Of a stretch of DNA of 62,316 nt, positions 55,600 through 57,550 are shown one piece after another. Every line of letters begins with the position of its first letter. The first letter of the stretch is position 1. Below the pieces are notes generated by a model. It made no database searches. It worked only from the letters and a program-made list of their open reading frames with translations, and was not told the origin of the DNA. This DNA comes from Dehalococcoidia bacterium. GTDB lineage: Bacteria > Chloroflexota > Dehalococcoidia > GIF9 > AB-539-J10. The DNA lies in assembly GCA_003552465.1 (NCBI GenBank), contig PULQ01000025.1, forward strand, positions 1-62,316, given 5' to 3'. The position numbers and the translations under genes are program-made.

Positions 55600-55870
55600 G
55601 ACATAATGCGCAGCGGCGTTAATGAGCATACGGCACGACCCTGAAGGGTGGCACTACAGGAGTGTTGACATAATGTCCGGCAGCGGCAAGGATCATGCGG
55701 TACGACCCTGAAGGGTCGAACTACAGGATTGTTGACATAATGTCCGGCAGCGGTAAGAATCATGCGGCACGACCCTGAAGGGTGGCACTACAGGAGTTTT
55801 GACATAATGTCCGGGAGTAGGAAGGAGCATGCGGCACGACCCTGAAGGGTCGCAATACAGGAGTGTTGAC
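55600..55870. repeat. Four tandem 67-nt units each carrying a GTAG-type REP
   Basis: GAC-starting units at 55600, 55667, 55734, 55801 (partial at 55868). REP cores at 55634, 55701, 55768, 55835. Confidence 0.9.
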
Positions 55871-55951
55871 GACGATGGCTTTCGAGATGGAAGGAGTTGA
55901 ACGGGGGATTGCGGCTGAACTGGCTCCCTGCCCGAAAGGGGGTGAGTTCCT

Positions 55952-56098
55952 ATGGGCTGTGTGGTGATCGCTGCGGCGGTGGGCGGCCTTGGGATGCTGG
56001 CTGTATACGTGAGTGCCGTCCTCGGTTTCTTCCTGATGCTCTTTACAGCCATCGTTACGCAACTGGCCGGACTGATAGGCCTGGTGCTCCTGATATAA
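55952..56098 (+). CDS. Small charge-free hydrophobic peptide 1 (48 aa)
   Basis: RBS GAAAGGGGGTGAG. MGCVVIAAAVGGLGMLAVYVSAVLGFFLMLFTAIVTQLAGLIGLVLLI*. Confidence 0.7.
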   Translation: MGCVVIAAAVGGLGMLAVYVSAVLGFFLMLFTAIVTQLAGLIGLVLLI

Positions 56099-56172
56099 CC
56101 TGAGCAGGGCACAGGCGGGATGATAAATGAAGTTAGAATGAACTGCCCGTGTCCTGAGGAGAGAAAGGCTAT

Positions 56173-56322
56173 ATGGGCTGTATAGTGGCGCCTGCCCTGG
56201 CAGTCGTGTTTGGACTTGCGGGCTTTGCCCTGACCGGTGTTACGGCTCTGTTCATGGGCGTCGCCACCATTCTGGTTAGTGGCCTGAGCGGTCTCATGGC
56301 CTTCCTCATGATCCTGATATGA
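56173..56322 (+). CDS. Small charge-free hydrophobic peptide 2 (49 aa)
   Basis: RBS GGAGAGAAAGG. MGCIVAPALAVVFGLAGFALTGVTALFMGVATILVSGLSGLMAFLMILI*. Confidence 0.7.
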   Translation: MGCIVAPALAVVFGLAGFALTGVTALFMGVATILVSGLSGLMAFLMILI

Positions 56323-56401
56323 GGCCGGGCTCAACCAGGTTGGGCGCTATGATTCAGAAGAGAGTAGAAGCCAGCCAGTACGCTGAGGAGACGAACAGGC
56401 C

Positions 56402-57271
56402 ATGATGACCTGTGCCGGGCTGCTCGCGGTAGCGACGGTCATCTTCCTGGTAGGCACTCTCCTGATCCTCGCCCTGATACCGTTAACCCTGGCCCTGCTC
56501 CTGCTAACAATCCTGGGGATACTGGCACTCCTTCTGCTACTGTGGCGCAACCTCTTCCCCTCGCTAACGAAACTTGCGAACTGGGCAGCTCAATTCAGGA
56601 ACATCGTCTTTCTCTTCGTCGTGGTGGTGGCTGTAGAGATCTTCCTGAGGTGGGGTCTCGTTCTAGCAGGTATCATCGTTCCCACCCTCACTCTGTTTGG
56701 AGTGACAATAACGATTCCAGGGTTACTCCTGCTGCTGCTCTTCCTCTTCCTGCTTGTACTGGCCATAGTTACCTGGCTGATCCGGTTGTTCCGTTACTCC
56801 TGGCCGCCGCTGCGAAACGTTTTCTGGGACCTGAGCTTTCGCCTGGTCGCCCTGTTCTGGAAGATTCTCCTGGGCATCCCGCTGGGCGTGGTCTGGTTCC
56901 TCTACCGTCCACCTCTACGGTGGCTGGTAGCGGTTGGCGTGTTCTACTTCAGGGGCATCGCCGCGGCAATAGCCTGGTTTATGTACAATCCTCCGTTGAG
57001 GGAACTGGCACGGGCGGGACTCTTCTTCGTGCGCCTGGCGGCCCGGCTCGTGGCCTGGATAATGTTCAACGCCCCGGTGCGCTGGATCGTGCAGATGGGG
57101 ATCTTCTTACTGAGGCTGGCGGCACGCTTTGTCAGCGGATTGATGTATGCGGTCTGGTCGTGGTGGACTCTGTCCGGGGTCAGGGACGCGTTCAGTAGAG
57201 GGCTAACCGTTGAGAGTAAGAGCTATCAGGACTACAAGCAGGCCCAGGATGACCGTAGCCCCGCCGCCTAG
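56402..57271 (+). CDS. Very hydrophobic membrane protein with three 27-aa Trp/Arg repeats
   Basis: RBS GAGGAG, uncharged N-terminal stretch of about 47 aa, repeats xxWFxYxPPLRxxxxxGxFxxRxxAxx. Confidence 0.75.
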   Translation: MMTCAGLLAVATVIFLVGTLLILALIPLTLALLLLTILGILALLLLLWRNLFPSLTKLANWAAQFRNIVFLFVVVVAVEIFLRWGLVLAGIIVPTLTLFGVTITIPGLLLLLLFLFLLVLAIVTWLIRLFRYSWPPLRNVFWDLSFRLVALFWKILLGIPLGVVWFLYRPPLRWLVAVGVFYFRGIAAAIAWFMYNPPLRELARAGLFFVRLAARLVAWIMFNAPVRWIVQMGIFLLRLAARFVSGLMYAVWSWWTLSGVRDAFSRGLTVESKSYQDYKQAQDDRSPAA

Positions 57272-57550
57272 CAGGCCGGCCACGTCCATATGACCGAAGA
57301 TCCGGTTGAATATCTCCTTGTTGATAGCCGCCTTCTGGCGCTCTGCTTCGTCTGATTCATCGGCAGACTCGGGCGTCTCGGCAGATGCCCTGTCGAATAT
57401 CGGTAGTATCATCTTCTTCCCCTCCCTCGACTCACGATAGACTATGCCGGCGATCACTATGCCGACGATGACGATGAATCCCCCGAGAATCAGCACAAGC
57501 ATGGACTGGCTTAGTATGCCTGCCGCGGGGCCAGGGTCAGCTGCGTACAT
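57203..57550 (-). CDS. Small membrane protein
   Basis: RBS AAGGAGG, TM helix, acidic linker, hydrophobic C-terminus. Confidence 0.65.
   Translation of the reverse strand: MYAADPGPAAGILSQSMLVLILGGFIVIVGIVIAGIVYRESREGKKMILPIFDRASAETPESADESDEAERQKAAINKEIFNRIFGHMDVAGLLGGGATVILGLLVVLIALTLNG

Follow-up and report, generated by a model that had tools for sequence, protein, structure and literature searches.

Small hydrophobic proteins encoded beside a larger membrane partner are a known theme, with KdpF, CydX, AcrZ and Pmp3/YqaE as examples. We have analysed a locus of this general kind in a Dehalococcoidia bacterium, on contig PULQ01000025.1 (62,316 nt, the whole of which is referred to below as the window), where two tandem genes encode hydrophobic peptides of 48 and 49 amino acids (aa) and are followed by the gene for a 289-aa polytopic membrane protein. 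In common with KdpF and the other examples, the peptides are shorter than 60 aa, appear almost wholly membrane-embedded, lie beside a presumed larger partner and carry no enzymatic motif. They differ in matching no hidden Markov model (HMM), in being about twice as long as one transmembrane (TM) span, in lacking flanking charges, in occurring as one to three tandem paralogues, and in that the partner is an uncharacterised protein rather than a transporter or oxidase. Near-total exclusion of charge, double-span length, tandem paralogy and a tie to a surface-protein module are the distinctive features of the locus.

Two other described systems invite comparison. The YjcZ/'tiny_TM_bacill' family (TIGR01732) of Bacillus comprises tandem paralogous, tiny, Gly-rich and essentially charge-free hydrophobic peptides; the present peptides resemble it in their tandem paralogous genes, very small size and hydrophobic, charge-free composition, but give no NCBIfam match to it, and differ in phylum, length and gene neighbours. 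The second is the membrane anchoring of surface-layer proteins in wall-less prokaryotes, such as archaeal S-layer proteins with a C-terminal TM anchor (SlaA/SlaB). Here too a surface protein with Ig-like domains ends in a TM anchor, in an organism that apparently makes no peptidoglycan, and candidate membrane partners are encoded alongside; there is no relation in sequence or fold and no sortase-like enzyme, and the partner role is here deduced from linkage. The two short open reading frames (ORFs) are real genes under selection, paralogous to one another and outside any described family. We lean, with confidence slightly above even, towards the view that their products are subunits, of proteolipid type, in a membrane complex of the envelope that is specific to this lineage and holds a surface protein.

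Inspection of the sequence and the ORF listing verified three co-directional ORFs (Table 1). The first two are the charge-free MGC peptides of the original prediction, whose coordinates, composition, shared motif and ribosome-binding sites were found to be correct. Peptide 1 (MGCVVIAAAVGGLGMLAVYVSAVLGFFLMLFTAIVTQLAGLIGLVLLI, 48 aa) and peptide 2 (MGCIVAPALAVVFGLAGFALTGVTALFMGVATILVSGLSGLMAFLMILI, 49 aa) have grand average of hydropathy (GRAVY) values of 2.27 and 2.14, respectively, and D, E, K, R and H are all absent from both. Each begins MGC and finishes L-(L/I)-I, and they have T..V(T/S).L(A/S)GL in common; purine-rich Shine–Dalgarno (SD) sequences, GGGGGTGAG and GAGGAGAG, lie 6–9 nt upstream of the genes. 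A six-frame scan of the whole 1.8-Mb genome gave nine charge-free ORFs of 38 aa or longer, only three of which have a GRAVY above 1.5; two of the three are the adjacent peptides 1 and 2, and the third is without a good SD. Given this genome-wide rarity, the pair is real, far beyond chance.

For comparison, 17 related loci were fetched at 48–89% protein identity to the 289-aa protein. In all 17, the gene for the 289-aa homologue is immediately preceded by one to three peptide ORFs that are free of charge and have an SD; the SD is strong and accessible in nearly all of them, and peptide length, start, stop and SD are kept at 52–86% nucleotide identity. The commonest arrangement is a pair of 48-aa and 49-aa peptides (two of these start with GTG), and four more distant loci (L015, L019, L022 and L023) have a single peptide of 54–65 aa (MIGC...MFG class). 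Three copies were found at locus L017 and in genome G301. In these two triple arrays (L017 3320–3921; G301 C46:30299–30897) the tandem genes follow a strict 226-nt period, and the central gene, which arose recently by duplication of the 49-aa gene, no longer has a Cys codon.

A profile search with the peptides gave at least 129 clusters in public data, from Dehalococcoidia only, and 120 retrieved sequences were analysed by residue. Charged residues occur in 18 of the 120. For seven of these the charge stems from mis-called N-terminal extensions or C-terminal read-through, and the remaining eleven are true-length 48-aa peptides whose sole charged residue is a His or Asp at position 19, a position that varies among Y, Q, N, H and D in this class. 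The 48-aa class (54 clusters) is invariant or nearly so at M1, G2, I6, P8, G25, F26, L28, T36, L44, V45 and L47, and the 55-aa class at MIGCL, Y20, M21, M25, G36, Y38, F46, A48, F50 and G55. So many fixed positions argue for selection on the specific sequence and not on hydrophobicity alone. The Cys3 that had been described as conserved is so only in part: it is present in 45 of the 54 48-aa-class peptides and replaced by L, A, G or I in the other nine, and is also replaced in some 49-aa peptides, whereas the Cys of the 55-aa class is invariant (43/43).

Nei–Gojobori estimates of dN/dS for close pairs range from 0.12 to 0.56, apart from a single value of 0.90 where divergence is very low; peptide 1 gave 0.13–0.22 against close orthologues and peptide 2 gave 0.12–0.56. 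The peptide coding sequence is better conserved than the spacers. The module had been termed unannotated, and this needs qualification, since homologous peptides are called as genes in public records of metagenome-assembled genomes (MAGs), as 'hypothetical protein'; what stands is the lack of any curated family. No match to the peptides was found in Pfam, NCBIfam, PADLOC or PHROGs (for NCBIfam, none at E<=0.1 for 28 family members and none at E<=1 for the window peptides), there is no match in the PDB, and a literature search on the peptide and 289-aa protein families found nothing. Among the curated families tested, none contains the peptides, the 289-aa protein or the module as a whole, and the proposal of an undescribed membrane-peptide system is borne out; its genes are real, under selection and tightly linked to the 289-aa gene. 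A 213-aa ORF on the opposite strand (window 55693–56334) covers both peptide genes; its frame is broken by stops in most relatives examined and it is very probably spurious.

AlphaFold2 models were made of single chains, and in that of peptide 2 residues 2–48 form a single helix (predicted local distance difference test (pLDDT) score 86). In all three peptide classes G, A, S and T recur at 98–100 degrees per residue, in phase over residues 9–46, a periodicity matched by no more than 2 of 2000 column shuffles. Such a pattern marks a helix that has a single unbroken face for close packing or for lining. The 55-aa class has four invariant or near-invariant Tyr residues (20, 27, 38 and 45) and MxxxM runs on adjacent helix faces, which lie within an internal 18-residue repeat.

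The product of the third gene begins MMTC, and 47 uncharged residues precede W48-R49. Three clean 27-aa repeats span residues 163–243 (56888–57130), with weaker repeat-like units on both sides; the Arg residues of each repeat fall within about 60 degrees on a helical wheel and the hydrophobic moment reaches 0.62, so that 'amphipathic', the word used in the original prediction, is correct, as are its other statements on this protein. Across the family the uncharged N-terminus is followed by an amphipathic WRxIYPWLVRMGRWAAQLRN helix, by two TM helices around a β-hairpin and, in the C-terminal half, by three to five amphipathic Arg/Trp repeats of 27 aa; the SYQDY tail that ends the protein is invariant. 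The family alignment shows a near-invariant Cys4, several invariant Arg residues and no invariant His. More than 465 homologues were found, all unnamed or 'hypothetical protein' and none with a Pfam domain; all those of named source come from Dehalococcoidia MAGs.

AlphaFold2 (30 sequences) models the 289-aa protein as all-helical except for one short β-hairpin (pLDDT 75, predicted template modelling score 0.41), in the order long N-terminal helix, amphipathic basic helix, two TM helices of normal length and repeat helices. The β-hairpin between the TM helices is the only clearly extracytoplasmic part of the model. According to the positive-inside rule, the basic half that carries the repeats should lie in the cytoplasm or at the membrane interface. 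When the model was compared with the PDB by Foldseek, the best E-value was 6.5, which is not meaningful, and a PDB sequence-profile search was equally without a meaningful match; neither the protein nor its family alignment matches Pfam, NCBIfam, PADLOC or PHROGs, and exosortase and rhombosortase models do not match the family. The M-x-C start and the similar uncharged length are a lead, and no more than that, towards kinship of the peptides with the N-terminal stretch of this protein.

The original prediction confined the module to the two peptide genes and the 289-aa gene. The linkage of these three is upheld, but two further members had been missed, and the unit is a five-gene cell-envelope cassette. 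In every contig that is long enough, a gene for a 584–674-aa TIG protein lies directly upstream of the peptide gene or genes, which are followed by that for a 281–291-aa membrane protein and, convergently, by that for a 110–118-aa protein; dprA and topA usually come next, and the synteny holds down to 48% identity. The test of homologues, synteny and dN/dS that had been proposed for the peptides comes out in favour of the genes. Neighbours in the window are genes for an RCC1/InlB-repeat protein and the TIG protein, and dprA, topA and gyrB. As had been noted, no transporter or modifying enzyme is encoded adjacent to the peptides, and none was found within about 4 kb of their genes in the window; the fetched relative loci likewise show no transporter gene.

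The TIG protein has a Sec signal peptide (ALA|DEP), IPT/TIG Ig-like domains, a C-terminal TM helix and a cytoplasmic tail, AYREEKFRLTP in the window and AYRE(E/T)KF(R/K)xx across loci. The convergent 115-aa protein consists of a TM helix, the motif VYRESREGKK, an acidic loop of about 40 residues and a second TM helix; across loci the motif after the first helix is VYRE(S/T)REW(K/R)K, and position and orientation of the gene are the same in L007, L009, L010, L019, L022, L023, L051 and L046. In this genome the TM-YRE(E/S)(K/R) motif is found in the TIG and 115-aa proteins only, and with two carriers a role as genome-wide sorting tag was rejected. A system of the sortase, exosortase or archaeosortase type was likewise rejected, the tag not being shared by several substrates, the 289-aa family having no invariant His and enzyme models giving no match. 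The 3′ ends of the 289-aa and 115-aa genes overlap by 69 nt (window 57203–57271); L007 and L010 have an overlap of the same length, that of L009 measures 45 nt, and in L019, L022 and L023 the two genes do not overlap.

Table 1. Features of the locus (window coordinates) and GWGWC-domain proteins of related loci (locus coordinates)
Feature	Position	Strand	Basis
TIG surface protein, 593 aa	53814..55595	+	Pfam TIG, E=1.5e-19
67-nt tandem units, 3.6 copies, in the TIG-to-peptide spacer	55627..55870	+	Tandem Repeats Finder (TRF) score 383
Peptide 1, 48 aa (48-aa class)	55952..56098	+	ORF list and homologue conservation
Peptide 2, 49 aa, paralogue (49-aa class)	56173..56322	+	ORF list and homologue conservation
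289-aa polytopic membrane protein	56402..57271	+	ORF; >465 homologues
Convergent 115-aa protein	57203..57550	-	position and orientation kept across relatives
GWGWC-domain proteins	L040 307-5853; L042 83-1054; L044 3555-4256; L051 1-969

The spacer between the TIG and peptide genes of the window holds an array of 67-nt units, each with a promoter-like TTGACA-17 nt-AAGAAT/AAGGAT element and a CGACCC-TGAA-GGGTCG hairpin. In relatives this spacer is about 130 nt and contains one degenerate copy of the unit, from which the array is judged to be a recent local expansion; it may be the promoter region of the peptide operon. The hairpin core GGGCGCGACCCTGAAGGGTCGCACTACAG was found at eight sites in the genome, among them window 34311, C13:3803, C13:3882 and C87:1894, with a variant at C87:1974; at C13 and C87 the core and a second hairpin, ACGAGGCTTyAGCCTCGT, share units about 79 nt long. 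Neither the locus region nor the repeated hairpin sites match Rfam, and the recurring hairpin looks like an intergenic family of the repetitive extragenic palindrome (REP) or miniature inverted-repeat transposable element (MITE) kind.

The module is confined to one Dehalococcoidia genus and a few relatives. A profile of the 289-aa protein matched 5 of 301 genomes sampled across the class, namely all three from the window's genus, one strongly in a second family and one as a weak partial match. Of 25 genomes from the genus, 20 encode the 115-aa protein, the misses being mostly incomplete MAGs; among 16 genomes from the order's other genera it gave a single marginal match (E ~0.01). Peptide matches occur in at least 15 of the 31 genomes scanned from the genus, a count that is a minimum, as peptides of the 55-aa class score weakly. 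Every peptide match in these 31 genomes shares a contig with the 115-aa gene, about 1.2 kb away, with none elsewhere, and no further copies lie elsewhere in the window's own genome. Inheritance of the locus is vertical, and its site in the chromosome is fixed.

Searching 1.84 billion representative proteins with the 289-aa profile gave no more than seven strong relatives, which marks the full-length family as a small one, together with about ten distant relatives that match residues 20–145 (the membrane domain) only. The distant relatives lie directly downstream of a secreted surface-protein gene and are without peptides. In G259 a 146-aa relative begins 9 nt after the gene for an 1848-aa FN3-repeat surface protein, in L042 one begins 9 nt after that for a secreted FN3 protein, and in L044 the relative is preceded by genes for a PEGA-domain protein and a 233-aa secreted protein. 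Common to the G259 and L042 surface proteins and the 233-aa protein of L044 is a GWGWC C-terminal domain without a Pfam match, which may be a surface-protein docking domain of Dehalococcoidia. It comprises about 190 aa (GWGWC...RSLF...LRTPG...), with an amphipathic end helix and mostly a G(A/V)PY(I/V)(P/Q)-stop terminus; no such protein is encoded elsewhere in the window's genome.

Locus L051 is intermediate. Its full-length relative of 269 aa has the repeats, a convergent YRE protein and dprA. The protein encoded upstream carries the GWGWC domain (E = 7e-13 against the L042 protein) and is itself not membrane-anchored; peptides are absent, and the uncharged N-terminal stretch is only about 30 residues long. 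The peptides are confined to the clade with a TM-YRE-anchored TIG protein and the 47-residue apolar N-terminus. By the gene order across these loci, the pairing of a surface-protein gene with the membrane domain is old and the peptides are a later addition.

Dehalococcoides-type bacteria have a wall-less envelope in which membrane-anchored surface proteins form the outer layer. No gene for a penicillin-binding protein (PBP) transpeptidase (PF00905) or a SEDS protein (PF01098) was found in the present assembly, which is 87% complete, and Lgt and LspA are encoded. From the absence of the former two from an assembly of this completeness, the envelope is probably free of peptidoglycan and composed of membrane and surface proteins, with lipoproteins still being made.

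In the proteolipid-type complex that we favour, the peptides would be translated from their strong ribosome-binding sites, insert in the cytoplasmic membrane as stoichiometric subunits and pack through their small-residue faces with two partners, the uncharged N-terminus (47 residues) of the 289-aa protein and the TM anchor of the TIG protein. The two-helix 115-aa protein would join them in the complex. The Arg/Trp repeats would lie on the cytoplasmic leaflet, able to bind the acidic loop of the 115-aa protein, and the TIG ectodomain would point outwards and belong to the layer of protein that covers an apparently wall-less cell. That the complex forms, its topology and its role as an anchor are what we infer, from gene linkage and from features of the sequences; in favour stand the conservation and linkage of the peptides, their packing face, the synteny of the module, the older tie to surface proteins, the co-occurrence of the peptides with the apolar N-terminus, and the apparent wall-lessness. 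Of the alternatives in the original prediction, that of proteolipid subunits with a partner fits best. A more specific form of this model, in which the apolar peptide helices of about 70 Å and the N-terminus of the 289-aa protein make up a new kind of helical platform that anchors the surface layer, with the TM-YRE tails docked on the repeats, is unlikely in our estimation.

Several observations weigh against such a complex. A 47-residue helix that is hydrophobic throughout measures roughly two bilayer thicknesses, and could be a hairpin, tilted or of some other form. Position 19 of the 48-aa class is polar and is followed by G/S and S/T (positions 19–22), which hints at a turn or hairpin; the small-residue stripe runs in phase across this stretch. 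Prediction places most of the 289-aa protein in the cytoplasm or at the interface and leaves a loop of about 12 residues outside, so that any contact with the TIG protein must use TM helices or tails. Comparison by hhalign gave no significant alignment of the peptides to the 289-aa N-terminus (probability 1.2%). Finally, genomic linkage alone also fits the relation of a substrate, a regulator or an antidote.

The peptides could instead oligomerise, with or without the N-terminus of the 289-aa protein, so as to line a narrow passage through which ions, small solutes or lipid head groups could move, with the 289-aa protein as gate or scaffold. A channel of this kind would suit the continuous Gly/Ala/Ser/Thr stripe, the Tyr and MxxxM faces beside it in the 55-aa class and a peptide copy number that varies from 1 to 3. 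Stripes of small residues are, however, at least as typical of tight helix packing, charged or strongly polar lining residues are absent, and the persistent neighbour is a surface protein, with nothing related to transport nearby; we consider a pore improbable.

The MGC and MIGC N-termini resemble a lipobox core, and this, with the Cys conservation in the 55-aa class, the near-invariant Cys4 of the 289-aa protein, the presence of Lgt and LspA and the tie of the module to surface proteins, would fit exported or lipid-modified surface peptides (pilin-, chaplin- or hydrophobin-like, or acylated on Cys) that coat or anchor the TIG layer, with the 289-aa protein as assembly or export factor. Against this, the peptides have no signal peptide, class III leader or n-region, the Cys is dispensed with in part of the 48-aa and 49-aa classes, the 289-aa protein has almost no extracellular part, and no ATPase, peptidase or acyltransferase is encoded inside the module in the window or in the fetched relative loci. 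We doubt this reading strongly. Two particular forms of it lack features that would be expected of them: a canonical lipoprotein, the Cys being at position 3 or 4 without a preceding signal peptide, and a type IV or Flp pilin, for which the class III signal peptide motif and Glu are missing, as are a peptidase and an ATPase in the module.

Small hydrophobic peptides encoded in tandem also call to mind type I toxins such as those of the E. coli ldr/rdl and ibs/sib loci, or holins, with the 289-aa protein or an RNA as antidote, and the first spacer of the window does fold into a stable hairpin (z = -3.2). This hairpin is not kept in relatives, where no conserved intercistronic RNA structure was found, and the spacers are less well conserved than the coding sequence. 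In contrast to ldr/rdl and ibs/sib, the SDs are strong and accessible, no antisense ORF or element is conserved, and the peptides always precede a 289-aa gene and are never found apart from it; the known type I toxins have charged termini. Rfam and PADLOC gave no match, and a fixed chromosomal site with vertical descent also counts against a toxin, which we rate as quite improbable.

The proposal of a two-peptide bacteriocin with an immunity protein has in its favour a likeness to class IIb systems, in which two related peptides of about 50 aa with small-xxx-small (GxxxG-like) motifs are followed by a membrane protein gene, but it fares badly in comparison. The peptides and their homologues are hydrophobic from residue 1, without a double-glycine or Sec leader; having no cationic charge, zero net charge and a GRAVY above 2, they would be insoluble and non-diffusible. 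Neither an ATP-binding cassette (ABC) exporter nor a C39 peptidase is encoded within about 4 kb here or in the fetched flanks of relatives (about 4–6 kb), and the locus is a vertically inherited core locus, conserved and syntenic throughout the genus rather than strain-variable. A bacteriocin is very improbable on these grounds. That the ORFs arose by chance or are fragments of a decayed membrane-protein gene, as short ORFs without a family match might be, can be dismissed almost entirely, given a length, start, stop and SD kept in 17 loci, dN/dS below 1, the exclusion of charge across more than 100 homologues and the invariance of specific residues.

Small membrane proteins are under-annotated, and, to our knowledge, nearly all those studied carry flanking charges that set their orientation. 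A family of 48–65 residues that excludes charge almost completely, yet keeps particular invariant residues and a stripe for helix packing, raises questions of how such proteins are inserted, oriented and assembled. The narrow taxonomic range of the module limits its present reach. The complex proposed here, if true, would be a first handle on how these uncultured, apparently wall-less sediment bacteria attach their surface layer.

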